Assembly (NCBI GenBank): GCA_012841375.1
Contig: DUUV01000002.1
Location: 17,828-81,827, forward strand
From: Candidatus Fermentithermobacillaceae bacterium
Lineage (GTDB): Bacteria; Bacillota; Sulfobacillia; Fermentithermobacillales; Fermentithermobacillaceae
Length of the DNA stretch: 64,000 bases
Direction: 5' to 3'
Shown here in pieces: positions 29,863 to 64,000 of the stretch. Below the pieces are notes generated by a model, which did no database searches, had not been told where the DNA came from, and was given only the letters and a program-made list of their open reading frames with translations. Positions within the stretch are counted from its first letter, which is position 1; the number at the start of each line of letters is the position of its first letter. A program made the position numbers and the translations under genes.

Positions 29863-29874
29863 TTCCTTCTCCCT

Positions 29875-31115: not shown

Positions 31116-31145
31116 GCAGTGACTTTCACATATGCAAGTCACTGC
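31116..31145. promoter_or_regulatory. Perfect 10-bp inverted repeat (GCAGTGACTT-N10-AAGTCACTGC), candidate regulator-binding / upstream activating site
   Basis: Seen directly in the sequence, ~170 bp upstream of the ldh2 start and immediately downstream of the sigma54-activator gene. Confidence 0.45.
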
Positions 31146-31195
31146 ACGCAGGACCCGTCAAACCGGGGGCGGCCGCACGCCCCGAGTCCGAGAGA

Positions 31196-32965
31196 TCAAC
31201 ATCGGTCCTTTGCCTCGAGTTCCTTGATGCCGTACCGCTCAAGCTTGTTGTAGAGACTCCTTAGGCTGATGCCCAAGAGCCGCGCGGCCTTTGTCTTGTT
31301 GTTCCCGGTCTTCTGAAGTGCGCTCAGGATGGTCGCCCGCTCCGCGCTATCCACCGCCTCCCTGAGGCTTCCTGCGATCAGCGTAGGCGCCGGCCCAACC
31401 GGTCCCATATCTCCTTCGGCCGCTCTCCCCAGTCTCTCGCCTCCCATAGACATGGGCGGCAGGTGCTCCGGCAGGATGACCGTCTCCTGGAACTTCATGT
31501 TCATCATCGCCCTGCCGATGACGTTCTCCAGTTCCCTCACATTGCCCGGCCACCTGTAGGTCTTGAACACCTCCATCACCTGGGGGCTTACGCTTTCCAC
31601 GGAGCGCCCGTATTCCTGGTTGAGCTTCTTGAGAAGCCGTTCGCAGAGGAACGGGAGGTCGTCTGTACGCTGCCTGAGCGGCGGAATGAAGATGGGAATA
31701 ACGTTTAGACGATAGTATAGGTCCTCCCTGAACCGGCCCTCCGCCACCAACTGCTCCAACGAGACGTTGGTGGCGGCTATTACGCGAACGTTGACGGGGG
31801 TAGGCTTGGAGTCGCCCACTCTCATGATCTCCTTCTCCTGAAGGACTCTGAGGAGCTTTGCCTGCAGCGCAAGATTCGTGACCCCAACTTCATCCAAGAA
31901 CAGGGAGCCGCCTTCCGCTTCCTCGAACAAACCCTTCCTGCCGCCTCGCTTGGCGCCGGTAAAGGCGCCGTCGACGTATCCAAAGAGCTCGGACTCAAGC
32001 AGACTCTCGCTGAGCGCCGCGCAGTTCACCCTCACGAACGGCTTATTCCTCCTGGGCGAGGCGCTGTGGATGGCGTGAGCGAAGAGCTCTTTGCCTGTCC
32101 CGCTCTCTCCCCGTAGGAGGACCGTCGCCGTCGTGGACGCCACTCTCCTTGCCTGTTCCACCGCCTGTGAGACCAGAGGGTTGACCGACACCACTTCTTC
32201 AAACGTGTACTTGGCCTCAAGCTGTCTCACGATCTTCTTCATACGGTCGAGTTCCTCTGTGAGGCGTATGATCTCAGACACGTCACGGACAACTCCCACG
32301 CTGCCCTTAAGCTCGTCACCGACGAACACGGGGTCTACCGAGACCACGACCTGCCTGCGCATGGGTCCTACCCTCATGGGCACGTTCTTCACCGGCTGCC
32401 TGGTCCTCAAAACCTGCATATGCATGCTGGGGCCCTCGGCTATGTCGACCGTGGCCGGCTTCCCTATCACGTCCTTTTCGGTTAGCCCCGTGAGCCTGGT
32501 GTAGGCCTGGTTGATGAGGAGACCGTTTCCGTTTGCGTCGGCAACCGAGATCGCGTCTTGGGTGGCTCCAATGATGGCGGTCAGAAACGACTGGATCTCC
32601 CTTAGGTTCGTGATCTGTCCTGCCAAATTCTGGACCTCGGTTAGGTCCCGGAAGACGGCGACAGCCCCGACGACCTTTCCGCTCTCGTCTCGCACAGGCA
32701 CCCTGTTGGTGATGATCTCCGTCGTCCCTACCGACTGCCTTTGGTTCAGCTGGGCCTCGCCCGTATCCAAGACCTCATCGAGCTTCGTCGTGGCTATCAC
32801 GTCCCGGACGTGAGCGCCCATCACATCAGAGGCTTTCTTGCCGAGTATCTTCTCTGCCGAAGGGTTGAAGACAAAGACATGACCGGAGGCGTCAACCGCC
32901 ACTATTGCATCGTGAGTAGCGTTTAGGATGAGATCAAGCAGTCTGACTCGTGCAGAATCCTGCAC
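31196..32965 (-). CDS. bkdR: Sigma-54-dependent transcriptional activator with two PAS domains (BkdR/AcoR-like enhancer-binding protein)
   Basis: Central AAA+ sigma54-interaction domain (GESGTGKE...GAFTGA...). C-terminal Fis-type HTH ...KTKAARLLGISLRSLYNKL... Probable GTG start at 32965 (GGAGGTG RBS). The ORF drawn from 32995 uses TTG. Confidence 0.85.
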   Translation of the reverse strand: MQDSARVRLLDLILNATHDAIVAVDASGHVFVFNPSAEKILGKKASDVMGAHVRDVIATTKLDEVLDTGEAQLNQRQSVGTTEIITNRVPVRDESGKVVGAVAVFRDLTEVQNLAGQITNLREIQSFLTAIIGATQDAISVADANGNGLLINQAYTRLTGLTEKDVIGKPATVDIAEGPSMHMQVLRTRQPVKNVPMRVGPMRRQVVVSVDPVFVGDELKGSVGVVRDVSEIIRLTEELDRMKKIVRQLEAKYTFEEVVSVNPLVSQAVEQARRVASTTATVLLRGESGTGKELFAHAIHSASPRRNKPFVRVNCAALSESLLESELFGYVDGAFTGAKRGGRKGLFEEAEGGSLFLDEVGVTNLALQAKLLRVLQEKEIMRVGDSKPTPVNVRVIAATNVSLEQLVAEGRFREDLYYRLNVIPIFIPPLRQRTDDLPFLCERLLKKLNQEYGRSVESVSPQVMEVFKTYRWPGNVRELENVIGRAMMNMKFQETVILPEHLPPMSMGGERLGRAAEGDMGPVGPAPTLIAGSLREAVDSAERATILSALQKTGNNKTKAARLLGISLRSLYNKLERYGIKELEAKDRC

Positions 32966-33044
32966 AAAAAACACCTCCGCCTGTGAATTCAACAAGCGGA
33001 GGGTGTAGTCCTCTAACCTGCACTAACTTGCACAATTTACCGGA

Positions 33045-37959: not shown

Positions 37960-38844
37960 CTACCGTGGAAGCCTATCGGCGCCTTCTTTCATCTTCCGGC
38001 GCAGCACGTGGTAGAAGGACCAGTTCTCGCGTCTTAGGAGCGTCACTTTAGGGCCCGCTACCGCAACTCTGACTCTGTCGCCCCTCTTCAGAGCGAAAAA
38101 CTCCTGGCCGTCAACGCAAAGAGATGTCGAATGGCTCGGTTCTATGACCTCGATCTCGCATGGCTCTTGAGCCGGGAGCACGATCGATCGCGAATAGAGC
38201 GTGTGTGCGCAAACCGGAGTCACCAAGAGCGCTTCAATTGAGGGCTCCATAAGCGGTCCGCCCGCCGACAGTGAGTAGGCTGTGGACCCCGTAGGAGTGG
38301 CGATGATCACGCCGTCGGCCGAGTACGTATCAACGATGTTTCCGCCTACCCTTAAGGTCGTGACTATCATCCGTCCGTAGGGCCCCTTGACCACGCACGC
38401 CTCGTTCATGGCGAGCCCCGTCCGGATCACCTGATCGCCCCTTATCACCGAGGCCCGGAGGAAAATCCTCCTATCCTCTATAAACCGTCCCGACAAAAAC
38501 GAAGGGAGCGTAGAGAACAGCTCTTCGGACTCAAGTTCGGTGAGAAAGCCGAAATGGCCCAGGTTGACTCCCAGGAGGGGGACTCCCTTAGACCCCAGTC
38601 CCCGGGCGGCAGCGAGTAACGTACCGTCCCCTCCGAGCACTACAGCGAATCTGACCCGTTCGGGCCAAAGACGCATGGGTAAACCGTGTCCAGGTCGTCC
38701 GACAACCTGAGTGAGACACGACGGTACGCGCCCGGCGTAGCCCTCAGAGTCAAGCCAATCGAGAAGCCGTCCGGAGAGCTCCAGACTATCTTCCTTCAAG
38801 AGGTTTGGAAGCACACCTATTATGAGGTCTTTGTTACCGGTCAT
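37960..38844 (-). CDS. nadK: NAD(+) kinase
   Basis: GGDGT motif (VVLGGDGTLL), then ...NEACVV...DGVIIATPTGSTAYSLSAGGP... Confidence 0.85.
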   Translation of the reverse strand: MTGNKDLIIGVLPNLLKEDSLELSGRLLDWLDSEGYAGRVPSCLTQVVGRPGHGLPMRLWPERVRFAVVLGGDGTLLAAARGLGSKGVPLLGVNLGHFGFLTELESEELFSTLPSFLSGRFIEDRRIFLRASVIRGDQVIRTGLAMNEACVVKGPYGRMIVTTLRVGGNIVDTYSADGVIIATPTGSTAYSLSAGGPLMEPSIEALLVTPVCAHTLYSRSIVLPAQEPCEIEVIEPSHSTSLCVDGQEFFALKRGDRVRVAVAGPKVTLLRRENWSFYHVLRRKMKEGADRLPR

Positions 38845-40720
38845 AGGCCTCCTTCACCAGGCGCCGGACGCGCTCGGCAATAGACTCTGCGTCCAGCCCC
38901 GACAGCTTTCTAAGCTCGGATTGCGGGCCGTGCTGAACAAAAGCGTCCGGCAGAGAGAGCGTCGCCACCTCCCGGTGTTCGCCGGTACCGGCCGCGAAGC
39001 TCAGGACGGCTTCGCCTAACCCACCTGCCGGCACATTCTCTTCCACCACAAGCAGCGGCCCGGTCTTCACCAATCGCGCCACGAGTTCGCGGTCAAAGGG
39101 CTTTACGAACCGCGCGTTGACTACAGCGCACGAGACTCCTTCCCCCGATAGGATCTCAGCCGCTTGAAGGGCAGGGTAGACCGCGCTTCCTACTGCCATG
39201 ACTGTGACATCGCTGCCCGATTGCAGGACTTCGGCTTTGCCCGTTTCCAACAGCTCGGGTTTCTCCAGCGCCTCACGGTAGTCCGCTCCAATGGCCGCCC
39301 CTCTCGGGTACCTGACTGCGCACGATTCGGGGATTTGAAAAGCCGTGTGCAGCATGTTGACCAGTTCGATCTCGTCTTTGGGAGCCATCACGACCATACC
39401 GGGAACTGTCCGGAGATAGCTCAGGTCAAACTCACCGTGATGGGTTTCTCCGTCGTCTCCGACAAGTCCTGCTCTGTCAATGGCGAACACCACCTTGAGC
39501 CGCTGCTGGGAGACATCCTGAACTATCTGGTCATAGGACCTCTGAAGGAAAGTAGAGTATATGGCGACCACCGGAAGCATCCCGCCTTGGGCCAGTCCCG
39601 CCGCATACGTAACGGCGTGACTCTCGGCGATCCCGACATCGAAGAACCGGTCGGGGAATAGCTCCTTGAACTCGCCCAGTCCGGTGCCATCCGACATGGC
39701 CGCCGTAATGGCGACCAATCTGGGATTGGTCTTGGCGAAAGCGCACATGGCCTCTCCGAACACCTTGTTCCAGGCAGGAGGGCCGTCCTTCCGGTATATT
39801 TCTCCGGTGGCCGGGTCAAAGGGACCGGGACCGTGGTACCTTTCAGGGTCCTTCTCCGCAGGCTCGTATCCCTTGCCCTTCTTGGTGACAACATGCACTA
39901 TGACGGGCTCCTTGAGAGCTTTGGCATCCCGCAACACACGCTGCATGCCCTCTATGTCATGTCCGTCTATGGGTCCGTAGTAGCTGAATCCCAGAGACTC
40001 AAACCAGGCTTCCGGGAACAAGAGGTGCTTCAGGCCCCCTTTCAGTCTCCGGAGCATCTCTACGGCCTGAGGGCCAAGGCTTGGCATCCTATCCAGCACC
40101 TTCTCAAGCCTTTCCTTAGCGGACCTATATATCGGCGCCATCCGGATAGCCGTGAGGTGGAATGAGAGCCCCCCGACATTTTCCGAAATGGACATGGAGT
40201 TGTCGTTGACCACGACGATAAGCCTGCTGCCCAGCCCGCCTGCATTGTTCAGCCCTTCGAAGGCCAATCCGGACGTGAGGGACCCATCTCCTATCACCGC
40301 CACAACGTGGTAGTCTTCCCCCCTCAGGTCTCGCGCCTTGGCGAGCCCCAAGGCATAGGAGATAGAGCCTGAGGCGTGACCTGTGTCGTATACGTCATAC
40401 GGGCTCTCCGCCCGCTTGGGAAATCCCGAAAGCCCCCCAAGCCGTCGCAACGTGTGAAAGCGGTGAGACCGGCCGGTGACAAGCTTGTGGGCGTATGATT
40501 GGTGACCCACGTCCCAGACTATCTTGTCTTTGGGAGTATCAAACACGGTGTGCAGAACCAGTGTCAGCTCGACGACACCTAGGGACGACGCCAAGTGGCC
40601 TCCGTTCTTCGACACGGTGTCGATGATGCGGGCGCGAAGATCCGCCGCGAGCGCGCGCAGCTCTTTGGGTGACAAGCGCTTAAGGTCCTCGGGTGACTTG
40701 ATATCGAAGGATTCTGACAT
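38834..40720 (-). CDS. dxs: 1-deoxy-D-xylulose-5-phosphate synthase
   Basis: ...DVGHQSYAHKLVTGR...GHASGSISYALGLAKA...GDGSLTSGLAFEGLNNAG... TPP / transketolase-like. 628 aa. Confidence 0.9.
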   Translation of the reverse strand: MSESFDIKSPEDLKRLSPKELRALAADLRARIIDTVSKNGGHLASSLGVVELTLVLHTVFDTPKDKIVWDVGHQSYAHKLVTGRSHRFHTLRRLGGLSGFPKRAESPYDVYDTGHASGSISYALGLAKARDLRGEDYHVVAVIGDGSLTSGLAFEGLNNAGGLGSRLIVVVNDNSMSISENVGGLSFHLTAIRMAPIYRSAKERLEKVLDRMPSLGPQAVEMLRRLKGGLKHLLFPEAWFESLGFSYYGPIDGHDIEGMQRVLRDAKALKEPVIVHVVTKKGKGYEPAEKDPERYHGPGPFDPATGEIYRKDGPPAWNKVFGEAMCAFAKTNPRLVAITAAMSDGTGLGEFKELFPDRFFDVGIAESHAVTYAAGLAQGGMLPVVAIYSTFLQRSYDQIVQDVSQQRLKVVFAIDRAGLVGDDGETHHGEFDLSYLRTVPGMVVMAPKDEIELVNMLHTAFQIPESCAVRYPRGAAIGADYREALEKPELLETGKAEVLQSGSDVTVMAVGSAVYPALQAAEILSGEGVSCAVVNARFVKPFDRELVARLVKTGPLLVVEENVPAGGLGEAVLSFAAGTGEHREVATLSLPDAFVQHGPQSELRKLSGLDAESIAERVRRLVKEAYDR

Positions 40721-41272
40721 TTACCCTTTCCTCTCCCGAATGATTCTCTGCCGAATTCTGCCGAGGATTAGGATTATGCTTTCAGCGTACTTCAAAGTCA
40801 CAGGCTTGAAAAGTGCCTTCCCCCCAACACTGAGCATGGATGCTATCCCCACGGCGACGCTGGTTGCCACCGCCCAGTCTATATACGGTATGTACTGCCC
40901 CACCCTGTACACAAGCGCCACCGCCAGAGCCCCGGCCATGGTGGCCGCGACGTCGCCTGCCAGATCACTAAAGACGGATGACACCCTGGGAGCGTTCCTC
41001 ACAAACCATACCGCCTCGCGGGCTCCCGGCACCCTCCTTGAGGCCATGGAGAGAAGAGACTCTTCTCTTGCCCTGGTCGCCGCCAACCCCACCGCGTCGC
41101 TCGCGATGCCCAAGGCTATCACCAAAAGAAAAAGAGGCACCCCGAAGTATGGCGGGATGGCCTCATACAATCGCTCAAACGCCAGGTTCATTAAAAGGCT
41201 CAGGACAAAGGCGCTGAGCGCGAAAGCAAAGATGCCGGCATATAAACCTCGCTCTCTTTTCTTCCTGCTCAT
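40721..41272 (-). CDS. oapA: OLE-associated protein A-like small 4-TM membrane protein (inferred from genomic context)
   Basis: 183-aa, four-helix membrane protein encoded immediately downstream of the large structured RNA and abutting dxs. This is the position OapA occupies in ispA-OLE-oapA-dxs loci. Confidence 0.5.
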   Translation of the reverse strand: MSRKKRERGLYAGIFAFALSAFVLSLLMNLAFERLYEAIPPYFGVPLFLLVIALGIASDAVGLAATRAREESLLSMASRRVPGAREAVWFVRNAPRVSSVFSDLAGDVAATMAGALAVALVYRVGQYIPYIDWAVATSVAVGIASMLSVGGKALFKPVTLKYAESIILILGRIRQRIIRERKG

Positions 41273-41275: not shown

Positions 41276-41790
41276 GTCGTCATCTCGCCTCCGAGGGGCA
41301 GCGCTCGCAGTAAATCTTGTGACTTAAGGTCCAGCAGGCTTTCCCGCCGGCCGACCGGGGCTTGCGCCCCTGGCGGTTCCCCTTTAGGGCCGGCCTGCCG
41401 CGTCGCCGCAAGCAGAGCTGGATCACCACTTAGTTCACACCGTAACCCCACAAGCGCCCAAGTGAGACGGTCTAGGAGTTTTCCTCAAGGGCCCCCATCC
41501 CTAGCCTTTATTGCAGCAAACGGGTTTTCAGGAGGAACCTTCCTACCCGGCCACTCAAGACAGGTCATTTCCCTAGACCGGGATGCAACCGTAGGGACAG
41601 GTGTCCCCGCGAAACCAGGGAGGACACCTACATGCCGTTGTAGGTTTCCCTGATTTCCTTCTCCCTAAAGGGACCGGAAGCTGGGCGCAACCGGCCCTCT
41701 CCAGGGCGAACCGGTATGACCGGTGACGGATTTTTAGCCCCGCCTTTGAGATGGGTCAGCCCACTAGAATACCGCGCCCACTCGGAGTGC
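41276..41790 (-). ncRNA. ole: Candidate OLE (ornate large extremophilic) RNA
   Basis: ~515-nt non-coding, highly structured region with many GC hairpins (e.g. GGUGUCCuccc..GGACACC; CCUACAacggcaUGUAGG). It is preceded by a strong sigmaA promoter and lies between ispA and the oapA-like gene upstream of dxs. No RNase P, tmRNA or SRP hallmarks were seen. Confidence 0.55.
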
Positions 41791-41797
41791 ACATTAA

Positions 41798-41826
41798 ATT
41801 ATACTCTAACTGGGGTTTTGCCTCAA
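41798..41826 (-). promoter_or_regulatory. SigmaA-type promoter (TTGAGG-17 nt-TATAAT) for the OLE-like RNA
   Basis: Perfect -10 TATAAT (complement of 41798-41803). The -35 TTGAGG (complement of 41821-41826) overlaps the ispA stop codon. Confidence 0.45.
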
Positions 41827-42731
41827 GAAGGAGAGGCAGAGGGAGAGTCAGCGGCCAGCTTGGTTGCAAGGTAGTGCTTGGACAGACGGGCAAGAAACCA
41901 ATCCGGTCCGGCCAAACGTATGCTTCTCTCTAGGGCCGAAGCAGCCTCTCTGCGTGCCGCGTCCAAAGACACCCGCTTGACCAAAGTATCTTTTTGGTCT
42001 TCGGAGCCGCCCTGGACTGAATCGTCAATATCATCCATAATCTGGAACGCAAATCCGAAACACATGCCTGCCTCCCCTGCGCGGGCCACGGTCGTCGCAG
42101 GCGCTCCGGCGAGGATGGCTCCGAGTTTGGCGGCAGTCTCAAAAAGCCTACCGGTCTTCAGCCGGTATGTGAGACGGACACGGTCGGCGGGGTCGTCGCC
42201 GTTGGAGCCCCGGTGAACGGACGGGCCGCCACCGGTCGAGATACCGGGCTGCAGGTCAAGGACTTGCCCTCCGACCATCCCTGCGGCCCCTGCCCCGTAG
42301 GCCAGGGCTCTTATGCCCTCGACGACCCGGTAAGGCGGAAGGTCGGAAGAGGCCGCCGTCTCAAACGCCAGAGTCAAGAGGGCATCGCCTGCCAGGACCC
42401 CTATGGCTTCGCCGTATTTCCTGTGGCAGGTAGGCCGCCCCCGGCGCATATCGTCATCATCCATGCAGGGCAAGTCGTCGTGAACAAGGGAGTATGCGTG
42501 GACCATCTCCATGGCAAGGGCAAAGGGCATGGCATCGCCGTCCCCACCCAGGCTCGCGTAGGTTGAGAGGACGATGGCGCCGCGAAGGCGCTTTCCGCCC
42601 CCCGCAGAGTAGGCCATGGCTTCGCGGATCAATGGGACGTCGCAACGGTATCCGCTTACCGCCGCTCCCATGGCTTTGTCAATTGATTCCTTCAAGAGGC
42701 CTAGCTCTCTCGTGAGGTCCTCTGAGGACAT
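41823..42731 (-). CDS. ispA: Farnesyl-diphosphate (polyprenyl) synthase
   Basis: Two Asp-rich motifs (VHDDLPCMDDDDMRRGRP and FQIMDDIDD). Probable start at MSSEDL (ATG 42731). The ORF drawn from 42911 overlaps xseB. Confidence 0.85.
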   Translation of the reverse strand: MSSEDLTRELGLLKESIDKAMGAAVSGYRCDVPLIREAMAYSAGGGKRLRGAIVLSTYASLGGDGDAMPFALAMEMVHAYSLVHDDLPCMDDDDMRRGRPTCHRKYGEAIGVLAGDALLTLAFETAASSDLPPYRVVEGIRALAYGAGAAGMVGGQVLDLQPGISTGGGPSVHRGSNGDDPADRVRLTYRLKTGRLFETAAKLGAILAGAPATTVARAGEAGMCFGFAFQIMDDIDDSVQGGSEDQKDTLVKRVSLDAARREAASALERSIRLAGPDWFLARLSKHYLATKLAADSPSASPS

Positions 42732-42822
42732 GGCCTTACCTCCAATACGCGTATGTCCGCCTGACGTACACGGCATTTCAGCCGGACGTCCGGCCGTTCC
42801 CAGGGCAAGAAGACCCTTTTCG

Positions 42823-43068
42823 TTACTCCGGCTCGCCTTCTTGCTTCGCCACACCTGATGCTCCGGGTTCCTTGGAGCCCGAGAGGATCTCCTCCACCTT
42901 GCGTTCGGCACTATCCAGGATACCCTCTAAGCGGCGGGCCAACTTGATGCCCTCCTCAAACTTGGCGAGTGAATCCTCCAGTGAAAGCTCACCGCTCTCC
43001 AATTGCTTCACGGTTTCTTCCAGTTGTCTTAGAGCTTTGGCGAAATCCATGTCCTCAGGCACGCTCAT
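42823..43068 (-). CDS. xseB: Exodeoxyribonuclease VII small subunit
   Basis: 81 aa (…DFAKALRQLEETVKQLESGELSLEDSLAKFEEGIKLARRL…) matches XseB. Confidence 0.85.
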   Translation of the reverse strand: MSVPEDMDFAKALRQLEETVKQLESGELSLEDSLAKFEEGIKLARRLEGILDSAERKVEEILSGSKEPGASGVAKQEGEPE

Positions 43069-54006: not shown

Positions 54007-54465
54007 TTAGTCCTTCTCCGGCTCCTCATCGTCGTCATCGTCACACGAGCACGACTCGTCATCGTCGCAATCGCATTCGAGCTCGACGTCCAGATCGTCG
54101 TAGTCATCCCATTCGATGTCATCTTGAGAGAACGAATCTCCGCACTCAGGGCAGACTATCTGGTTCTCGGGATCGTCCAGAACCGATGCCTCAATCTCCA
54201 GAAGTTCCCCGCAGTTGGGACACTCGATCTCCACGAAGTCACTGCCGTACACGGTTTCCTCGACATCTGAAAGGTCCTCGTCGACCGATTCCACGTAGTC
54301 TTCCAAATCGTCCTGGGCCTCAGCCAGTTTCTCAATGGCCTGGGCCATCTCCTTGAGCACGTCTGAAATGACTTTTATAGCCTTTCCTTCCTTGGTGCTG
54401 TCCGATATGTCCAGGCCTTCAATGAGTCCCTGGAGATACGAGACTCTCTCCCTCAATTGAGACAT
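54007..54465 (-). CDS. Hypothetical coiled-coil + zinc-ribbon protein with a poly-acidic Cys/Asp C-terminal tail
   Basis: Strong RBS (GAAGGAGGGG 5 nt upstream). CPNCGELLEIEASVLDDPENQIVCPECG (CxxC...CxxC). C-terminus ELECDCDDDESCSCDDDDDEEPEKD. Occupies the yqhV-like position between efp and spoIIIAA. Confidence 0.65.
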   Translation of the reverse strand: MSQLRERVSYLQGLIEGLDISDSTKEGKAIKVISDVLKEMAQAIEKLAEAQDDLEDYVESVDEDLSDVEETVYGSDFVEIECPNCGELLEIEASVLDDPENQIVCPECGDSFSQDDIEWDDYDDLDVELECDCDDDESCSCDDDDDEEPEKD

Positions 54466-54563: not shown

Positions 54564-55121
54564 CTATACCCGCTCGATATACGTGCCCGTGCGAGTGTCC
54601 ACTTTCAGGACATCGCCCACGTTCACGAAGAGCGGGACCTTCACCGTTGCTCCGGTCTCGAGCTTGGCGAGTTTGGTACCGCCTGTCGCCGTATCGCCTT
54701 TGAAGCCGGGCTCGGTCTCAACCACCGCGAGCTCTACGAAATTAGGCACCTCGACACCAATCACCCTGTTATCATAGCTCAATATGACGACGTTCATGTT
54801 CTCTTTCAGGTAGTTGGCGCCGTCGCCTATGTCTTCCCGCGTCACGGTGATCTGCTCGTAAGTCTGGTTATCCATGAGCGTGTAATCGTCGCCGACGGCA
54901 TAGAGGAACTGGGCCTCCCTACGCTCGATGTGAGCCCTGGGGAGCTTCTCGCCGGCGTTGAAGGTCCGCTCGAGCACCGCTCCCGTTATGACGTTCTTGA
55001 TCTTGGCCCGCACAAAAGCAGAGCCTTTTCCGGGCTTGACATGCTGGAAATCAACGACCACCCAAGGTTGGCCGTCAATCTCAACCGTCACTCCGGTGCG
55101 AAAATCGTTTGTAGATATCAT
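54564..55121 (-). CDS. efp: Elongation factor P
   Basis: [43 protein letters not shown]... matches EF-P. 185 aa. Confidence 0.9.
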
Positions 55122-55133
55122 GCGGACACCTCG

Positions 55134-56252
55134 CTAACCTATTACCGTCAATTCTTTCGGGCTTCCGGAGAGTATCTCCTTGCCGCTCTCGGTTATGACG
55201 ATCAAGTCCTCGATGCGGCATCCCCCGAACCCGGGTATGTAGATGCCTGGCTCCACCGTGATCACCATGCCGGGCTCCAACAAGGTCTCGCCTTTCTTTC
55301 CGGCGCTGGGCCCCTCGTGTACAGCGAGGCCGACCCCGTGACCGGTCCCATGGCCAAAATACTGGCCGTATCCTGCGTCTTCGATGACTTTCCTGGCCGC
55401 GGCATCTACATCCTTGCCCGGGACTCCGGGCTTAGCCGCCTCCAAACCCGCAAGTTGAGCCTCCAACACAACCTTGTATATCTCTTCGTGCTTCTTGTCC
55501 AAAGGATCGATGACAAACGTCCTCGTTTCATCAGAGCAATACCCTTTATACCTTGCCCCAAAGTCAAACGTGAGGAAGTCGCCGGGGGCTACTTTGTTGT
55601 CGGTAGGTTGTCCGTGAGGCAGCGATGATCTGGCGCCGCTCACAGCAATTATGGGGAAAGCCAGCCCGTCGGCCCCGAGCCTGCGCATGGTGAACTCAAG
55701 CTCCAGCGCCAGTTCGTTTTCGGTGGCCCCTACTCTTATAGCCCTCGATGCCAATGAGAACGCCTCATCGGCGATTTCCTGAGCCTTGGCAATCAACGCG
55801 ATCTCTTCAGGACTCTTGACCATCCGGAGGCCTTCGATCCAGCGAGACACGCCCTCAAGCCGGATCCCTTCGAACCTCTCCTGCATCCTCTCAAAATTGG
55901 CGTAAGTGACCTGGTCCTTCTCGAAGGCCAGAGAGCGCACGCCCTCTTTCTTCAGAGCATCCTTCAGGGGGTCTATATCCACACCGGTCTCAACCACATT
56001 GAAATCGGGAGCTTCTTCGGCAGCTATTTCTGTGTACCGGGAATCGGTGAAAAGGTAGCTAGAATTCTCCGTGATCAGGACCTGCCCGGCATCACCCGTA
56101 AACCCCGACAGGTACCGCCAGTTCAGGTATGTAGTGACGAGAAAAGCGTCGACGCCTTCTCCGGCCATCTTCTCGCGAATCTTGGCCAGTTTCATCTGAG
56201 AATCCACGAATTCACCCCCGGGATGGGAATTTTTGCTTGCCAATTCTACCAT
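55134..56252 (-). CDS. pepP: Xaa-Pro aminopeptidase (M24B)
   Basis: C-terminal pita-bread domain (...HGTGHGVGLAVHEGP...). Metal-ligand residues are conserved. The start may be a downstream ATG (56195). Confidence 0.85.
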   Translation of the reverse strand: MVELASKNSHPGGEFVDSQMKLAKIREKMAGEGVDAFLVTTYLNWRYLSGFTGDAGQVLITENSSYLFTDSRYTEIAAEEAPDFNVVETGVDIDPLKDALKKEGVRSLAFEKDQVTYANFERMQERFEGIRLEGVSRWIEGLRMVKSPEEIALIAKAQEIADEAFSLASRAIRVGATENELALELEFTMRRLGADGLAFPIIAVSGARSSLPHGQPTDNKVAPGDFLTFDFGARYKGYCSDETRTFVIDPLDKKHEEIYKVVLEAQLAGLEAAKPGVPGKDVDAAARKVIEDAGYGQYFGHGTGHGVGLAVHEGPSAGKKGETLLEPGMVITVEPGIYIPGFGGCRIEDLIVITESGKEILSGSPKELTVIG

Positions 56253-56306
56253 AGACGGGCCCGCTCCGGTAGCCGAGAGAACGGGCCCATCTTCTCAAGA
56301 CCGTAG

Positions 56307-57542
56307 TTATAGGTAGAAGGGGAATTTCCCTGTCAGTTCCTTGACCTCGGCGGCGATCTTCCGCTCACTCGCTTCGTCGCCAATGGCCGAAAGGGTCCGG
56401 TCGATGAGCTCCCCGATGACCTTCATCTCGGGTTCCTTCATTCCCCTGGTGGTTACGGCGGGGCTTCCAATGCGGATCCCGCTTGTGATCATGGGCTTCT
56501 TGGTGTCAAACGGGATGCCGTTCTTGTTGACCGTGATGCCGACCTTGTCGAGGGCGACTTCCGCGTCCCTTCCGGTTATACCCTTTGAGGTCAGGTCGAC
56601 CAGCATGAGGTGGTTGTCAGTTCCACCCGACACCAACCTGTAGCCCCGTTCCATCAAAGACTCTGCCAGCGCTTTGGCGTTCTTGAGGACCTGGGCCTGG
56701 TACTCTTTGAAAGACGGCTCGAGGGCTTCCTTGAATGAGACAGCCTTGGCGGCTATCACATGCATGAGCGGTCCGCCCTGGATTCCCGGGAAAATGGCCT
56801 TGTCGATGGCGGTGGCCCACTCCTTGGTGCACAGGATCATCCCCCCACGGGGTCCTCTCAGGGTCTTGTGCGTAGTAGTGGTGACGAACTGGGCGTGCGG
56901 GACAGGTGATGGATGAAGCCCTGCCGCCACCAGTCCGGCGATGTGGGCCATATCGACCATGAGTAGGGCTCCCACTTCATCGGCGATGGACTTGAACGCC
57001 TCAAAGTCGATGATCCGCGGATAGGCGCTGGCGCCGGCCACGATCAGCCGGGGCTTGGATTCCTTGGCTATCTCCCGCACACGGTCGTAGTCGATGCGCT
57101 CGGTCTTCCGGTCGACCCCATAGGCCACGAAATTGTAGTACTTCCCGGACATGTTCACCGGGCTGCCGTGGGTGAGGTGACCACCGTGGGCCAAGTTCAT
57201 CCCGAGGACCGTATCCCCCGGCTTCAGACATGCGAAGTACACGCCGGTGTTCGCCTGCGCTCCTGAATGGGGCTGGACGTTGGCGTGATCCGCGCCGAAT
57301 ATGGCCTTTGCTCTGTCCCTCGCCAGGTTCTCGGCGATGTCCACAACCTCGCAACCGCCATAGTACCGCTGACCTGGATAACCTTCCGCGTACTTGTTGG
57401 TCATGACGGAACCCATGGCCTGAAGCACGGCTTCGGTTACAAGGTTCTCGGAAGCGATGAGCTCGATAACACTCATTTGCCTCTCTTTTTCATCCTGAAT
57501 CGCGGCGTAGATCTCCGGGTCTCGATGGGCCAGTGGATTCAT
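56307..57542 (-). CDS. glyA: Serine hydroxymethyltransferase
   Basis: ...[18 protein letters not shown]... and the PLP lysine context ([15 protein letters not shown]). Confidence 0.9.
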
Positions 57543-57593
57543 CTCTCTCCCGCCTTTCTGATGAAATGCTGCTCTCTACCTCTGGAACGCTCC

Positions 57594-58988
57594 CTACCTC
57601 GTAATCATGTGGATGGGCTTCTCGCTCACTCCGTGCATGGCCTCAAACATGGCCTCGGGAAGAGTCGGATGGGCATGGATCATGCTCGCGACCTCCTTGG
57701 CCGTCATGTCCGCCTGCATGGCAAGGGCGGCTTCGTGGATAAGGTCGTCGGCGTGAGGCCCGAGGATATGGACCCCCAGGATCTTGCCTGTGTCGGCGTC
57801 GCCAATGACCTTGACCAGACCTTCGGTCTCGCCGATGGACAAAGCCCGCCCGTTGGCGCTGAAGGGGAACTTGGAGACCTTGACGTTGTATCCCTTCTCC
57901 TTCGCCTGTGACTCCTTCAAGCCGACCGACGCGCATTCGGGGATGGAAAACACGCAGGCAGGGACAACCCTGTAGTCCATGTGGGACTCGTGCCCGAATA
58001 TGTTCTCCATAGCCACAATACCTTCTACCGATGCGACAGGCGCCAGGAAGGTCTTGCCGACAACATCTCCTATGGCGTAGATGCCCTTGACGTTGGTCTG
58101 CATGGTGTCGTCGGTCTTGATGCCGTACTTGTCATGCTCAACGCCCAGAGCCTTGAGGTCAATGCCTCCGAAGTGAGGCACTCTTCCCATGGCTATGAGG
58201 ATGGTATCGGCGCGGAACTCTTTCCTTTCTCCTTCTTTCGTGTCTGCCACGAGGACCTTTTCGCCGCCCTCTTCGCGCATCTCCTTGATGTAGATGCCCG
58301 AATGGACGTTTATGCCTTTGCGCTTCAGAATCGGCATGAGACGCCTGGAAATCTCCTCATCCACAGGCGGGAGGATGAGGGGCGAACGCTTCACCATATC
58401 GATCTTGGACCCGAAGGCGTTCCAGATGCAGGCAAACTCGACGCCCAACACGCCACCGCCTATGACCAGCATCCTCTCGGGGACGTGGTCAAGCTCCAGA
58501 GCGTCATCTGAGGAAATGGCGTGGGCCAGGCTCTCTTTGGGCACGGGAGGAAGCTGCTGGCTGGAACCGGTGGCAAGAATGATGTTCTTCGTCTCCAGGG
58601 TCTCCTTGGAGCCGTCCTCGTAGGTGACTTCAACCTTGCCCGGAGCAGGGACGTTGGCCCAACCCCGGTACACCGTTATCCCATTGCCTTTGAGAAGCAT
58701 CTCTACGCCGCCCACAAGCCGCTTCACGGTATTGGACTTATGAGCCATGGCACCGGCAAGGTTCAGCTTTACTTCTCCTACCTCGACGCCGTACTTGTGG
58801 GACTCCTTGGCGTTTAGGTAGGTAGTTGCTGCGTGGACAAGTGCTTTTGTCGGAATGCACCCGACGTTAAGGCAGCAGCCTCCTATCTTGTGTCCTTCCA
58901 CCAAGGCGATCTTTCCGCCCAACTGGGCTCCTTTGATGGCGGCCACGTATCCGCCCGGGCCACTGCCTATGACGACTACATCAAACAC
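57594..58988 (-). CDS. lpd: Dihydrolipoyl dehydrogenase (E3 / glycine-cleavage L protein)
   Basis: FAD-binding N-terminus MFDVVVIGSGPGGYVAA. Redox disulfide GGCCLNVGCIPTK. Confidence 0.9.
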   Translation of the reverse strand: MFDVVVIGSGPGGYVAAIKGAQLGGKIALVEGHKIGGCCLNVGCIPTKALVHAATTYLNAKESHKYGVEVGEVKLNLAGAMAHKSNTVKRLVGGVEMLLKGNGITVYRGWANVPAPGKVEVTYEDGSKETLETKNIILATGSSQQLPPVPKESLAHAISSDDALELDHVPERMLVIGGGVLGVEFACIWNAFGSKIDMVKRSPLILPPVDEEISRRLMPILKRKGINVHSGIYIKEMREEGGEKVLVADTKEGERKEFRADTILIAMGRVPHFGGIDLKALGVEHDKYGIKTDDTMQTNVKGIYAIGDVVGKTFLAPVASVEGIVAMENIFGHESHMDYRVVPACVFSIPECASVGLKESQAKEKGYNVKVSKFPFSANGRALSIGETEGLVKVIGDADTGKILGVHILGPHADDLIHEAALAMQADMTAKEVASMIHAHPTLPEAMFEAMHGVSEKPIHMITR

Positions 58989-59012
58989 TGTCTCTCCTCC
59001 TTAGCGCTCTTC

Positions 59013-59855
59013 CTAATGCAACTCCTCGTCCTGCCTGCCCCGTTCCCTGGTCCAGGCGGAACACCCGTATTTCTTCTCGATAAGTCTCAGGGTTTCGTCT
59101 TCTTCCTTCTGCGTTAGGTTACCCGGCTCGAGCCTCCAGCCCAAGGCCGTCCCGAATCCTGCCTTGAGGTGCTCCTCAAGCTCGGTCCTCAGGCAATCAC
59201 GCCCCAAGGCCTCGAAAATCCCAGCTGCCTTCCTCTGTAACATCGCCCGGCTCCGTTCGGCGTGTTCGGGTGAACTCGTCTTCAGACACTTAACGAGTTT
59301 GGCCGCGTCAAATCTGAAGGGGATTGAGCCGTGCTGCAGGATCACTCCGTTCTTCCGGTTCTGGGCAGAGCCGATAAGCTTCTTCCCGTCCCATAGGATC
59401 TCAAACCAAGAAGGGGCAGAGAAGCATGCGGCTTGCCTGAACCTCGGATCTCTGGAAGTGACCCCCCGCTCCAAAGCCGCTATGGCCGCCGGGATACCCA
59501 TGAGGCGAAGTCCCTCGACCAACGCCTGAGAGATTCGCCGGTACGTCTCCAACACCGACCCCGGCAGCATCTTCTCCGGTACTACAACGCTGTAGGTAAT
59601 CTCGTCATCGTGAAGGACCGCCTTGCCGCCTGTCAGCCTTCTCACCAGGTCAACTCCTAGAGACGGCAGCGCCTCCACGTCCACTTCTCTGGATAGGTCC
59701 TGGAAATACCCCAAGGACAGACACGCAGGGTCCCACTGATAAAAACGCAATGTAGGTCCGGTGTCGCCCCGTGCGCAAGACCTTAGGATGGCCTCGTCCA
59801 CGGCCATATTACGACTGCCTTTCGCCGGCCCATGAGAAAGCAGGCGGACCTTCAT
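59013..59855 (-). CDS. lplA: Lipoate/octanoate-protein ligase-family protein (BPL/LPL catalytic domain only; LplA-N / LipM-like)
   Basis: ...RRLTGGKAVLHDDEITYSVVVPE...GKKLIGSAQNRKNGVILQHGSI... BPL/LPL catalytic-domain motifs. 280 aa, no C-terminal accessory domain. Confidence 0.75.
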   Translation of the reverse strand: MKVRLLSHGPAKGSRNMAVDEAILRSCARGDTGPTLRFYQWDPACLSLGYFQDLSREVDVEALPSLGVDLVRRLTGGKAVLHDDEITYSVVVPEKMLPGSVLETYRRISQALVEGLRLMGIPAAIAALERGVTSRDPRFRQAACFSAPSWFEILWDGKKLIGSAQNRKNGVILQHGSIPFRFDAAKLVKCLKTSSPEHAERSRAMLQRKAAGIFEALGRDCLRTELEEHLKAGFGTALGWRLEPGNLTQKEEDETLRLIEKKYGCSAWTRERGRQDEELH

Positions 59856-59883
59856 TCAGTAATTCCCCTCCCTAAGGTGTGGG

Positions 59884-60861
59884 TTAAGCCAGCCCGCTCT
59901 CCTTCCTCGCCTGTTCCGCTTCGTTCGCAGTGAGAACCCTCGGGTAGTTCATCATCACTTGTCCCGGACGCTCGGTGTAATACGGCCTGTTGCAGTACAG
60001 GCATCCTGACGTCTCAAAGGGTTTGCCCGAGAGTATCTCTTCCCTGAGGCCGGGCCGGTCCAGGTCGATACTCACTATCTTCCCGTCGTTCACTTCGATT
60101 TTCCCCGCGTCTCCTCCTCTTTTGAGGAAGTATGCCGCCAACTGCACTCTACGGTAGTGGCCCACATCCGGCGGGGACATCTTTTCCATGGCAGTGCCTC
60201 TCACCGGCGTGAACGCAAATAGACCTACGGTCACTCCGGCCGACTGTGCCCTTACCAAGAACCGGACCGCGTCCTCCTCTGTCTCTCCGAGTCCCACGAT
60301 AAGGTGGGTCGAGATCCGGCCGGGCCACCGCGCGGCGGCCTTTTCCAGCACAGCCCAGGCCCCTTCGAACGACCCGCCTTTGACCTTGGCGTATATCTCG
60401 GCGCTCGCCGCGTCCAACGGCAGCCCCACGTTGGTCGCTCCGGCGGCGAAAAACAGCTCCACTCTGGCGACCGACGCGGGCGTCACTGCGACGCTCAATA
60501 GCACTGAAGGCGACATGGCCCTCACCTGGCGTAGAAAAGCGAGAGCAGGTCCCTGAGAGTTAGGGCATTCCACCGTCTGAACGCAGACCCGCTTCAGGAC
60601 CCTGGCTGAAATGGCCGAGGCAAGAGGCCCTTTGAGCCTGTCCCATGAGAACCTGGGCCAGGTAACCCTGGAAAGGTGGTTGGGAGCGGACTTGCTCCCC
60701 CTGGCCTGGGCACAAAAGGAGCAGTTCCTCAGGCAATCCTCTCCGAACAGGACGTGGGCGGTGGTAGGTTTCTCCATGAGCCTGGCCCGAACAAGGCCCA
60801 AGACTGAAGCCGTGCCCGACGAGACTCCGATGGGGGTGGTTTCCAGGTCAAATCCTGTCAA
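59884..60861 (-). CDS. Radical-SAM protein (CxxxCxxC = CLRNCSFC), candidate LipS-type lipoyl synthase component
   Basis: Radical-SAM core near the N-terminus plus extra Cys pairs (CVQTVEC; C-terminal CLYC). Overlaps the upstream radical-SAM gene by 14 nt. Lies in the gcvP-lplA-lpd-glyA locus. Confidence 0.75.
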   Translation of the reverse strand: MTGFDLETTPIGVSSGTASVLGLVRARLMEKPTTAHVLFGEDCLRNCSFCAQARGSKSAPNHLSRVTWPRFSWDRLKGPLASAISARVLKRVCVQTVECPNSQGPALAFLRQVRAMSPSVLLSVAVTPASVARVELFFAAGATNVGLPLDAASAEIYAKVKGGSFEGAWAVLEKAAARWPGRISTHLIVGLGETEEDAVRFLVRAQSAGVTVGLFAFTPVRGTAMEKMSPPDVGHYRRVQLAAYFLKRGGDAGKIEVNDGKIVSIDLDRPGLREEILSGKPFETSGCLYCNRPYYTERPGQVMMNYPRVLTANEAEQARKESGLA

Positions 60862-61768
60862 ATGAGCAGCACTCTTCCTTCCTGATCACTGTAAGCCCCA
60901 GAGCTTCGGCCTCCCGAAGCGCGTCGGGGTGAGGCAGCACTATCCGGTCGCATCCGGCCCGGACCGCCAGCGGGTCCAAGACCTGCCTGTACTTGCCTCT
61001 GGGCCGCATGCAGCCAAGCGAAATGTCCAGCCGGGGAGCTCGCACCCTTGTCCAGGCCATGAGACGGGCGACTTCTTGTGGCTCCGGGGGGGGGTAGTCC
61101 TGCCATGCCGTGCCCTCCGTAGGGATGAAGACGATAAAGATAATCCGGTCTATCCCCTCTTTGAGGAGGAAATCCACGGCGTCATACTCGCCCTTCAAGG
61201 CGCCCTTATGGAGCCCAACCAAGACATGGGGCACTACCTCGGCCTTTCCTCTCCGTAGGTTCCTCAGGGTCTCCACGTAGTCGCGGCCCGTCCACTTTCC
61301 GTGAAAAGCCTCTCTGATTGTCTCCTCGTCCAGCACGAAATCGAAGGAGATCACCGATGCGGCTTCCGCTATGGCCCGGGCCGCCGGAGGAGCCGCCACT
61401 CCCGGGTGGACATTCACCCTGAACCCTCTTCCCTCAGATTCCAGGCGGCGGGACAACTCGGATACCTCATCCAGTGAGGAAAGGAGCGGGACTGCTCCCG
61501 AAGTGTCACACCCCCCTGAAAGGAGAATGCTCCTGGGCTTCTTTTTCTCGATTGCCTCGGGCAGGTGTCTCACGTCCACCATGTGCTTCAGGTAATGTCC
61601 GCCGCAGTGAGAACACCCCAGAGCGCACGCAGTCCCCGTCACGCTTACTGCCATGGTCTCAACCGGGTACACGGCCCAGAAGACCGGCGGGCGACCTGTT
61701 GCGCGCGCCGCCGTAGCCTCCTCAAGGATTTGGTCCGGGTGGTGACTCCGGTCCCTCTCCAATCTCAC
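60848..61768 (-). CDS. Radical-SAM protein (CxxxCxxC = CALGCSHC), candidate LipS-type lipoyl synthase component
   Basis: Radical-SAM motif at residues ~47-54 and a C-terminal ...EECCSF... The start is likely a GTG/TTG near 61768-61760 (AGGTGG RBS). Confidence 0.75.
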   Translation of the reverse strand: MRLERDRSHHPDQILEEATAARATGRPPVFWAVYPVETMAVSVTGTACALGCSHCGGHYLKHMVDVRHLPEAIEKKKPRSILLSGGCDTSGAVPLLSSLDEVSELSRRLESEGRGFRVNVHPGVAAPPAARAIAEAASVISFDFVLDEETIREAFHGKWTGRDYVETLRNLRRGKAEVVPHVLVGLHKGALKGEYDAVDFLLKEGIDRIIFIVFIPTEGTAWQDYPPPEPQEVARLMAWTRVRAPRLDISLGCMRPRGKYRQVLDPLAVRAGCDRIVLPHPDALREAEALGLTVIRKEECCSFDRI

Positions 61769-61770
61769 AC

Positions 61771-61830
61771 CACCTGTCTCTCTACGCTTCTCTCTCTACC
61801 CGTCTCTCCATCTACGTGTCTCTCTATATG
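61771..61830. repeat. Four imperfect tandem ~13-15-nt GA-rich repeats (GUAGAGAGAN... on the mRNA strand) in the gcvPB / radical-SAM intergenic leader
   Basis: Plus strand reads tctctctacgcttctctctctacccgtctctccatctacgtgtctctctata. Seen directly in the sequence. Confidence 0.5.
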
Positions 61831-61836
61831 AGCGGT

Positions 61837-61865
61837 GTCGGGAGGAGGGCAAACCTCCTCCCGAC
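61837..61865. other. Perfect 12-bp GC-rich hairpin (GTCGGGAGGAGG-gcaaa-CCTCCTCCCGAC) just downstream of the gcvPB stop, with no U-tract
   Basis: Seen directly in the sequence. Candidate RNA processing / stability element or protein-binding site rather than a canonical terminator. Confidence 0.5.
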
Positions 61866-61940
61866 GGTGTTACCGTTATTCCCATAGAACCCCCATCGAG
61901 CCTCGCCGGGGGACGGGCCGACAAGGATCCTACAGGCCGG

Positions 61941-63404
61941 TTACATTCCTTTACGCCACCTGAGCCTCGGATTCTTGGCGGCGCCCGCCTCGTCAAGACG
62001 GCCAACCACCGTGGTGTGAGGCGCCTTGTGGAGCATCTCGGGGTTCGAGTACGCTTCCTTGGCGATGGCGATGAGCGCGTCGGCGAAGTAGTCCAAGGAG
62101 TCCTTGGACTCTGTCTCCGTCGGCTCTACCATGATGGCCTCATCCACGATAAGCGGGAAGTAGTTGGTGGGCGGGTGTACGCCGTAGTCAAGGAGACGCT
62201 TGGAGATGTCCATTGTGTGGCATCCGGTCTCCTTCTTTATCCTCTGGGGCGAGACCACGAACTCGTGCTTGCAGTGCCTATCGTAAGGCAGGTCGTAGTA
62301 CTCGGTTATGCGCCGGAGGAGATAGTTGGCGTTCAGCACCGCGTCCTTGCTGGCCTCCCGGAGTCCGTCGGGGCCCAACGACCTGATATACGCGTATGCC
62401 TTGACCATGACCAGGAAGTTGCCGTAGAAGGACTTCACCCGGCCGATGGTGTTGGGCACATCGTAGTTCAGGAAGTACTTCTCCCCGTCAAACTCAACGA
62501 CCGGTACGGGCAGGAACGGGGCCAAGTCCTTCTTGACGGCGACCGGGCCCGATCCGGGACCGCCGCCGCCGTGAGGCGTCGAGAACGTCTTGTGCAGGTT
62601 GAAGTGCAAGACGTCGAACCCCATGTCGCCCGGACGGGCGATACCCATGATGGCGTTGGCGTTCGCCCCGTCGTAGTACAGGAGTCCTCCCCTCTTATGG
62701 ACGATCTCTTGGATCTTCTCGATGTTCTCATCAAAAAGACCAAGCGTGTTGGGGTTGGTCAGCATGAGCCCCGCCACTGTCTCGTCCATCACCTTATCAA
62801 GAGCCTCGATGTCCACTCCGCCGCGGCTGTTCGAAGGTATCTGGACAGTCTGGAATCCGGCCAGCACACCCGAGGCCGGGTTTGTGCCGTGAGCGGCGTC
62901 GGGGATGAGGATCTTCGTCCTTGCCGAGTCGTTCCTTGACTCGTGATACGCCCGGATGATGTGAATCCCGGTAAGCTCGCCGTGAGCTCCCGCCGCAGGC
63001 TGGAGGCTCACTTTGTCCATACCTGCGATCTCGGCCAGATACTCCTGCAGTTCGTACATCATCTGCAGGGCTCCCTGGACGGTCTCCTCAGGCGCGTACG
63101 GGTGGATGTCGGTGAACCCCGGAAGGTTGGCGACTTCCTCGTTGATCTTGGGATTGTACTTCATGGTGCAAGAGCCCAAGGGATAGAACCCGATGTCGAC
63201 GCCGTGATTGAGCTGGGAGAGCCTCGTGAAGTGCCTGACAAGGTCAACTTCGGCGACTTCCGGAAGCTCGGCCGGGGCCTCTCTGAGCTCGCCTCCGGGC
63301 AGGTACTCGCTCATAGGCTTCTTCTCGACCTCAAGCGCAGGGAGAGAGTATGACTTCCTTCCCGGCTTGGATACTTCGAAGATCAAGGGCTCAAGGCCTC
63401 TCAT
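61941..63404 (-). CDS. gcvPB: Glycine dehydrogenase (decarboxylating) subunit 2
   Basis: ...[16 protein letters not shown]...[13 protein letters not shown]... matches GcvPB. 487 aa. Confidence 0.9.
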
Positions 63405-64000
63405 GCCAATCCCTCCAATCCGGCAAGAAGGTCATCCATTTCCTTCTTGGTGCGCTTCTCGGTGACGGCGATTAGCAGGTGATCCTTGAGCTCCGGATAC
63501 GCCCTTCCCAGCGGGTATCCGGCCAGGATCTTCTTGGATACCAGTGACTTCACTATCTCCTCAGGGTCTACAGGACACTTCACGGCGAACTCGTTGAAGA
63601 ACGGAGTGTTCCACGCGAGGCTGTAGCCCTTTAGATTGGCAATTGCGTCCGCAAGATAGTGAGCCTTTGCGACGCAGTGCTCGGCCAGCTCCTTGAGACC
63701 TTCCTTGCCCAGCCAGCTCAGGTAGACCGTGGCGGCAAGCGCGTTCAGCGCCTCGTTGGAGCATATGTTGGAGGTCGCCCTATCTCTCCTGATGTGCTGC
63801 TCGCGAGTCTGAAGAGTGAGGACGAAACCCCGCTGCCCGCGGTTGTCGCTGGTCATTCCCACAAGCCTGCCCGGCATGCGCCTCAGGTACTTGTCTCTGA
63901 CGGCAAGGACTCCCAGGTAGGGACCTCCAAAAGCCATGGGGTTCCCGAATACCTGTCCCTCACCGACGACGATCTCTGCGCCGTACTCGGCAGGTGGCCG
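63401..64000 (-). CDS. gcvPA: Glycine dehydrogenase (decarboxylating) subunit 1 (C-terminal part only; the start lies beyond the window end)
   Basis: ...[27 protein letters not shown]...[22 protein letters not shown]... matches GcvPA. The reading frame stays open to position 64000. Confidence 0.85.

Follow-up and report, generated by a model that had tools for sequence, protein, structure and literature searches.

Within a 64-kb stretch of DNA (64,000 nucleotides; referred to here as the window) from a Candidatus Fermentithermobacillaceae bacterium, two overlapping radical S-adenosylmethionine (SAM) genes are embedded in a glycine-cleavage locus. Judged from family models and ligand conservation, their products are the two-protein lipoyl synthase LipS1/LipS2, and the product of the gene that follows them is predicted to be a LipM-type octanoyltransferase. 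We propose that the locus forms a self-contained operon for glycine cleavage in which LipM and LipS1/LipS2 are also encoded and would assemble the lipoyl cofactor on the operon's own H protein, GcvH. We estimate the probability of this reading to be about 85%. A preliminary description of the same DNA had suggested a LipS1/LipS2-type synthase for the radical-SAM pair, and that suggestion is borne out by scores above both curated equivalog cutoffs and by the presence of every experimentally defined ligand.

The 306-amino-acid protein scored 257.2 bits against the NCBIfam equivalog model for LipS1 (NF053742; cutoff, 230), with the alignment spanning model positions 3 to 268 of 268. The 325-amino-acid protein scored 322.1 bits against the corresponding model for LipS2 (NF053743; cutoff, 270; model positions 2 to 292 of 292). 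Other hidden Markov models (HMMs) failed widely. The pair scored 16.9 and 25.8 bits against BioB (TIGR00433; cutoff, 225); against canonical LipA (TIGR00510/PRK05481; cutoff, 310.25), LipS2 scored 23.9 bits and LipS1 gave no match. HmdB and MSMEG_0568 were also rejected as identities for the pair on the basis of HMM scores, and on those scores neither protein is an orthologue of BioB, LipA, or a peptide maturase; orthology to another radical-SAM family had been named in the preliminary description as speaking against a LipS assignment. Neither protein contains the CX4CX5C motif or the RSSY sequence, whose absence had already been remarked upon; E. coli LipA, the positive control, has both. Over their full lengths, LipS1 and LipS2 are 33.5% and 34.9% identical, respectively, to the Thermococcus kodakarensis enzymes. 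A sequence search of the PDB found no solved structure related to LipS1 or LipS2. An AlphaFold2 model of LipS2 had a predicted local distance difference test (pLDDT) score of 87.7, and the closest solved folds found with Foldseek were type II BioB, HydE, LIAS/LipA, and E. coli BioB, with TM-scores of ~0.5. The loop carrying the auxiliary CxxC (residues 285 to 300) had a pLDDT of <50, as expected, since the model was built without a cluster.

Cluster ligands of the T. kodakarensis enzymes have been defined by mutagenesis: C27, C31, and C34 together with C230, C276, C277, and H159 in LipS1 (TK2109), and C39, C43, and C46 together with C85, C276, C279, and H178 in LipS2 (TK2248) (PMC9585515). We aligned the window proteins with the T. 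kodakarensis sequences printed in the supplement of that paper. Each window protein has a single CX3CX2C motif, as previously described: C48, C52, and C55 in LipS1 and C43, C47, and C50 in LipS2. The auxiliary ligands of TK2109, in the order given above, align with C253, C300, C301, and H181 of the window LipS1, and those of TK2248 align with C93, C287, C290, and H186 of the window LipS2. All LipS1 ligand columns, radical-SAM and auxiliary, were invariant in 57 aligned sequences from GTDB species genomes; all LipS2 ligand columns were invariant both in our LipS2 alignment (A2) and in 80 aligned sequences from GTDB species genomes. Family membership and ligand conservation are established directly for this locus. 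The extra cysteine motifs proposed earlier as possible cluster sites are all present, and two of them correspond to ligands (CLYC to C287/C290 and EECC to C300/C301); in the third, CVQTVEC, only C93 is conserved and C99 is not. One conserved LipS1 cysteine had been overlooked, namely, C253 in "SLGCMRP." A further cysteine, Cys87 of LipS1 ("LLSGGCDTSG"), directly follows the GG of the SAM-binding motif; it is present in 56 of the 57 aligned LipS1 sequences and is replaced by Met in TK2109. Cys87 may serve as a further cluster or active-site residue in the majority of LipS1 proteins.

All open reading frames (ORFs) of the locus lie where they had first been placed, and all are on the minus strand. 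The 3′ part of gcvPA (glycine dehydrogenase subunit 1) runs from position 63401 to beyond 64000 and is truncated by the window end. It overlaps by 4 nucleotides with gcvPB (glycine dehydrogenase subunit 2; 61941 to 63404; 487 amino acids; Pfam GcvP2_C, 5e-28, and GDC-P, 2.1e-11). Next come lipS1 (60848 to 61768; GTG start) and lipS2 (59884 to 60861; TTG start). The reported 14-nucleotide overlap of these two genes holds with the TTG start of lipS2, which is supported by alignment of the LipS2 model from residue 12 and by homologues with 79 to 81% identity that span 100% of the query. The lipM-type gene (59013 to 59855; 280 amino acids; Pfam LplA-B_cat, 7e-39) starts 28 nucleotides downstream of lipS2. 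It is followed by lpd (57594 to 58988), encoding dihydrolipoyl dehydrogenase, the L protein (464 amino acids; TIGR01350 equivalog, 534.2 bits against a cutoff of 408.8), and by glyA (56307 to 57542), encoding serine hydroxymethyltransferase (411 amino acids; Pfam SHMT, 4.9e-176). From gcvPB to glyA, the gaps between genes range from −14 to 54 nucleotides, with the sole exception of a 172-nucleotide gcvPB-lipS1 spacer. An exact look-up gave no record for the window LipS2, and the contig of a 99%-identical protein (P0001) was taken instead. Contig L001, from a Joint Genome Institute (JGI) metagenome, matches 14.1 kb of the window at 99.8% identity and extends 6.8 kb further. On it, gcvPA is immediately preceded by gcvT and gcvH. 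The full 445-amino-acid GcvPA of L001 is 99.5% identical to that of the window, and the L001 GcvH has the lipoyl-lysine motif ESVKA. With gcvT and gcvH read from L001, the overall gene order is gcvT-gcvH-gcvPA-gcvPB-lipS1-lipS2-lipM-lpd-glyA.

To place this order in a wider context, we scanned GTDB species genomes with the LipS2 alignment, which confirmed at least 590 relatives. The operon proteins were mapped onto the best 80 loci, and counts of gene order were restricted to the 55 loci with sufficient flank. lipS1 was directly upstream of lipS2 at 42 of these 55 loci, and a lipM-type gene was directly downstream of lipS2, also at 42. The full order gcvH..gcvPB-lipS1-lipS2-lipM was found at 30 of 55 loci, 20 of which also had lpd downstream. 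No lipA, lipB, or two-domain lplA was found within 10 kb at any of the 55. Gene order and its conservation are likewise established, and the association with a gene of the lipoate-ligase family and with gcvH, on which the preliminary description had made its proposal depend, proved to be a tight and widely conserved linkage. The hosts include Sporomusa, Pelosinus, Propionispira, Acidaminococcaceae, Desulfosporosinus, Desulfitobacterium, Halothermothrix, and Frackibacter. The complete operon, from gcvT to glyA, is widespread in anaerobic Firmicutes, including Sporomusa, Pelosinus, Desulfosporosinus, Desulfitobacterium, and Halothermothrix. At two Clostridioides difficile loci and one Paraclostridium locus, gcvH...lipS1-lipS2-lipM occurs without adjacent gcvT or gcvP. 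Since neither gene adjoins, the H protein that the LipS pathway serves in C. difficile may belong to a different context.

A lipoyl synthase pair of this kind could be genuine and still be redundant, with LipA (with or without LipL) encoded elsewhere and lipoylating other proteins while LipS1/LipS2 serves GcvH only. LipA is also found in 42 of 106 Firmicutes genomes that have both LipS1 and LipS2 (PMC10332631), and our coverage of the genome consists of the 64 kb of the window and 6.8 kb from L001. However, the absence of a canonical lipA from the window, noted at the outset, was upheld by tblastn and Pfam scans, which also found no lipB, second lplA, or LplB domain there; the best window match to E. 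coli LipA by tblastn was LipS2 itself, at 25% identity. No lipA was found within 10 kb of lipS2 in the best 80 related loci. The biology of the host also bears on this question. Close homologues come from metagenome-assembled genomes placed in Candidatus Fermentithermobacillaceae (GTDB class DTU015), and relatives are described as spore-forming thermophiles and strict fermenters (PMC10215811). The window agrees with the view that the organism is a spore former: it contains spoIIIA genes (AA, AB, AE, and AH), spo0A, spoIVB, spoVA, spoIIM, and a spoIIAA/AB/sigma-factor trio.

A branched-chain amino acid fermentation cluster lies at 23731 to 32995 on the minus strand. It encodes a PAS-domain sigma-54 activator, two Leu/Val-type dehydrogenases, two butyrate-kinase-like proteins, a phosphate butyryltransferase, and a 2-oxoacid:ferredoxin oxidoreductase subunit. 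It resembles the B. subtilis bkd operon, but with the ferredoxin enzyme in place of the lipoyl-dependent dehydrogenase. Because this cluster uses a ferredoxin oxidoreductase and not a lipoyl-dependent dehydrogenase, GcvH is the only evident lipoyl client within the window. A cluster of the ferredoxin type and relatives that are strict fermenters both fit GcvH as the main or only lipoyl protein, and we consider a redundant LipS1/LipS2 possible but less likely than not.

The 280-amino-acid partner had been described as an LplA- or LipM-like protein with a biotin/lipoate ligase domain. It is a LipM-type protein, and the LplA-type alternative did not hold. It consists of a single catalytic domain (PF21948, residues 15 to 234) with no C-terminal domain found, and it shares 41% identity with B. 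subtilis LipM over 274 amino acids (202 bits; E = 1e-68). For this comparison, a B. subtilis LipM sequence served as the query only; the matches named "octanoyltransferase LipM [Bacillus subtilis]" were 99 to 100% identical to it, and one of these (P0262) was the sequence compared. Cys144 and Lys159 of the window protein align with Cys150 and Lys165 of B. subtilis LipM. Both residues were invariant across 16 homologues, and among the cluster-linked sequences, C144 was present in 55 of 58 and K159 in 57 of 58. PDB entry 2P5I, a LipL homologue, was not matched by the 280-amino-acid protein at E ≤ 0.001. B. subtilis LipM is an ACP:GcvH octanoyltransferase, where ACP is acyl carrier protein, and GcvH is its first acceptor (PMC6067878).

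The same protein might instead be the catalytic subunit of a bipartite LplAB-type ligase, with LplB encoded elsewhere, in which case the locus would belong to an ATP-dependent, salvage-type sLpl(AB)/LplAB-LipS1/S2 pathway for free octanoate or lipoate, the arrangement that the preliminary description had in mind. Its best solved relative is indeed subunit 1 of Thermoplasma acidophilum LplA (E = 5e-22), its top NCBIfam match is LplA_large, and LipM shares a subclade with archaeal LplAB, with several LplA-to-LipM transitions inferred (Tanabe 2023, PMC10332631). Yet the LplA_large score was 130.6 bits against a cutoff of 480, the LplAB score was 102.4 bits against a cutoff of 550, and the match to B. 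subtilis LipM far exceeds any match to a ligase. Cys144 sits in a segment that is missing from Thermoplasma LplA. No LplB (PF10437) ORF was found in the window by tblastn or Pfam scans, and neither the window nor any of the 80 related loci gave a match to the C-terminal domain of E. coli LplA. The characterized sLpl(AB) ligases of sulfur oxidizers are only 17 to 19% identical to LipM (PMC6067878). The strong LipM match, the aligned Cys and Lys, and the distance of the ligases from LipM lead us to assign the 280-amino-acid protein, by sequence, as a LipM-type octanoyltransferase rather than an LplA or sLpl(AB) ligase, and the bipartite ligase is improbable.

The idea that the radical-SAM pair are paralogues of biotin synthase, or else some other BioB/HydE-like maturase with no role in lipoate synthesis, is very hard to sustain: JGI does label homologues "biotin synthase-related," and BioB and HydE are among the closest solved folds, but the BioB model scores fall far below the cutoff, Pfam scans of the window detected no bioA, bioD, or bioF, dozens of species show linkage of the pair to gcvH and lipM, and the characterized LipS proteins were themselves once misannotated as biotin synthases (PMC9585515). 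The labels "biotin synthase-related" and "lipoate-protein ligase A" should be dropped for these genes.

We propose the following pathway for the LipM-LipS1/LipS2 locus. LipM would move an octanoyl group from octanoyl-ACP to its Cys144 and then to the lipoyl-lysine of GcvH (in ESVKA). The radical-SAM [4Fe-4S] cluster of LipS2 would bring about hydrogen abstraction at C8, and a sulfur atom would be supplied by the auxiliary [4Fe-4S] cluster held by C93, C287, C290, and H186. LipS1 would likewise act at C6 of 8-mercaptooctanoyl-GcvH, using the auxiliary cluster held by C253, C300, C301, and H181, and the product would be dihydrolipoyl-GcvH. Each of the two enzymes would use one SAM. Finally, Lpd would oxidize the cofactor and then, once the system is running, fill the role of its L protein. 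The octanoyl-ACP donor and GcvH acceptor in this scheme are modeled on B. subtilis LipM; T. kodakarensis LipS1/LipS2 are the model for the C8-then-C6 order, for the substrate that each enzyme accepts, and for the origin of the sulfur. In that organism, LipS2 takes only the octanoyl substrate and LipS1 takes only the 8-mercaptooctanoyl substrate, and the 34S data fit sulfur donation by the auxiliary clusters (PMC9585515). The logic of LipM followed by LipS1/LipS2 for bacteria without Lpl has also been inferred by Tanabe et al. 2023 (PMC10332631).

The genes of the locus may be expressed together. Tandem glycine riboswitch aptamers were detected with Rfam upstream of gcvT on L001 (4125 to 4372, plus strand; 48.1 and 44.4 bits), which places them, from the alignment of L001 with the window, ~2.7 kb past the high-coordinate end of the window. 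They are positioned such that they could control the whole gcv-lipS1-lipS2-lipM-lpd-glyA operon, and gene spacing is consistent with cotranscription and coregulation under this riboswitch. A scan for promoters and terminators across 55000 to 64000 found nothing on the minus strand. The gcvPB-lipS1 spacer (61769 to 61940) has a predicted fold of −73.2 kcal/mol and contains, at 61837 to 61865 on the minus strand, a perfect 12-bp GC-rich hairpin, GTCGGGAGGAGG-TTTGC-CCTCCTCCCGAC, without a U-tract. Its arms, GTCGGGAGGAGG and CCTCCTCCCGAC, resemble Shine-Dalgarno and anti-Shine-Dalgarno sequences, and a GAGAGA-rich tract lies 3′ of the hairpin, just ahead of the lipS1 start. Seven relatives keep the stem, GGGAG[GA]AGG/CCTCCTCCC, in their gcvPB-lipS1 spacer, which more distant Firmicutes lack altogether. 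Rfam gave no match in the spacer at gathering thresholds. The hairpin may set mRNA stability or partly attenuate downstream expression.

A more specific version of the proposal is that GcvH is the only lipoylated protein in this lineage and that LipM, LipS1, and LipS2 form the sole, GcvH-dedicated route to it, without LipA, LipB, LipL, or Lpl, cotranscribed under the glycine riboswitch, with the spacer hairpin setting the ratio of structural to maturation proteins. We advance this only tentatively and regard it as somewhat less likely than its negation. If it is correct, cells would produce the cofactor-building enzymes only in response to glycine, when the apoprotein is itself induced. The locus would then be the first in which a riboswitch governs lipoyl-cofactor biosynthesis, and it would offer a minimal and experimentally tractable bacterial LipM-LipS1/LipS2 system.

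Several points weigh against the proposed operon and pathway. The LipS1/LipS2 pathway has been proven in bacteria with an sLpl(AB) ligase and not with LipM (Tanabe et al. 2023, PMC10332631). The LipS pairs of Firmicutes, that of this organism included, are known from genes alone. The octanoyl-ACP scheme would depend on the genome encoding an ACP and type II fatty acid synthesis. A canonical lipA may lie outside the 64 kb, as LipA accompanies LipS1/LipS2 in the 42 Firmicutes genomes mentioned above. The 172-nucleotide spacer, with its strong hairpin, could separate two transcription units. Finally, Cys150 of B. subtilis LipM is reportedly the acyl-thioester site (Christensen and Cronan 2010), and literature text searches for C150 matched LipL only and not LipM.

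The preliminary description had called the arrangement barely characterized. That holds only for biochemistry, which has yet to be applied to any LipM-LipS1/LipS2 system; as a gene arrangement it has been catalogued before and is common in anaerobic Firmicutes. Clustering of bacterial LipS1/LipS2 genes with those for GcvH and a biotin/lipoate protein ligase was reported by Neti et al. 2022 (PMC9585515). In the S4 Table of Tanabe 2023, Lpl is present in 64 of the 106 Firmicutes genomes with LipS1 and LipS2, and LipM occurs without Lpl in 41 (PMC10332631); because these 41 are listed, the window locus belongs to a catalogued kind. The same study found that lipS1/lipS2 co-occur with LipM where the ligase is absent, described direct linkage of canonical lipoate-synthesis genes with lipS1/lipS2 in Sporomusa, and assembled its LipM dataset from lipS1/lipS2 clusters (PMC10332631). 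In its S5 Table, clusters carry the label "LipSM" (PMC10332631). These clusters have the same combination as the window, with Sporomusa as the named example of direct linkage, and they are known from the genome survey only. The accessible parts of Tanabe 2023 do not describe the full gcvTHP-lipS1-lipS2-lipM-lpd-glyA operon with a glycine riboswitch. The window thus provides a clean further example of the LipM-LipS1/LipS2 combination, from an uncultured thermophilic Firmicute lineage, and leaves the current understanding of lipoate biosynthesis unchanged.

Like T. kodakarensis LipS1/LipS2 (TK2109/TK2248), the window pair consists of two BioB-like radical-SAM proteins with identical ligand sets (Cys3 plus His in each). 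The T. kodakarensis genes, however, are >130 genes apart and occur with a bipartite LplA, whereas the window genes overlap and lie in a gcv operon with LipM; T. kodakarensis LipS1 also differs at the "SGGC" cysteine described above. The sLpl(AB)-LipS1/S2 systems of Hyphomicrobium denitrificans and Thioalkalivibrio resemble the window in that bacterial LipS1/LipS2 genes adjoin the gene for the octanoyl-attaching enzyme (PMC10332631). There, that enzyme is an ATP-dependent, two-domain ligase, often accompanied by the LipT flavoprotein, and it serves LbpA of sulfur oxidation (PMC10332631). The window, in contrast, has the single-domain LipM type and no lipT, with GcvH as the evident target. B. 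subtilis shares with the window a LipM that octanoylates GcvH first, and differs in that sulfur insertion is carried out by one LipA rather than by two single-sulfur enzymes. B. subtilis also has LipL; none was seen in the window, although no search was aimed at LipL. LipA/LIAS catalyzes the same net reaction and has the same class of radical-SAM barrel fold (Foldseek TM-scores, 0.43 to 0.49), but with the opposite order of insertion, the characterized LipS pair proceeding at C8 before C6.

The window also contains features unrelated to lipoylation. A full-length OLE (ornate large extremophilic) RNA is encoded at 41279 to 41796 on the minus strand (Rfam RF01071; 281.8 bits). It is flanked by a polyprenyl synthase gene (41823 to 42911) and by an ORF of 183 amino acids (40721 to 41272) with no Pfam match above the cutoff, followed by dxs (38834 to 40720). 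These are the usual surroundings of OLE RNA, and the 183-amino-acid ORF may encode the OLE-associated protein OapA. A cobalamin riboswitch is present at 924 to 1117 on the minus strand (Rfam RF00174; 111 bits). At 6148 to 8008, also on the minus strand, a LigD primase-polymerase gene adjoins an ATP-dependent DNA ligase gene, which suggests a bacterial nonhomologous end-joining module. Finally, a 152-amino-acid protein encoded at 54007 to 54465 on the minus strand combines a zinc-ribbon core (CxxC...CxxC) with a highly acidic C-terminal tail that is rich in Asp and Cys (CDCDDDESCSCDDDDDEEPEKD). Its Pfam matches are all weak, and its gene lies between efp and spoIIIAA, a position that is kept in relatives.

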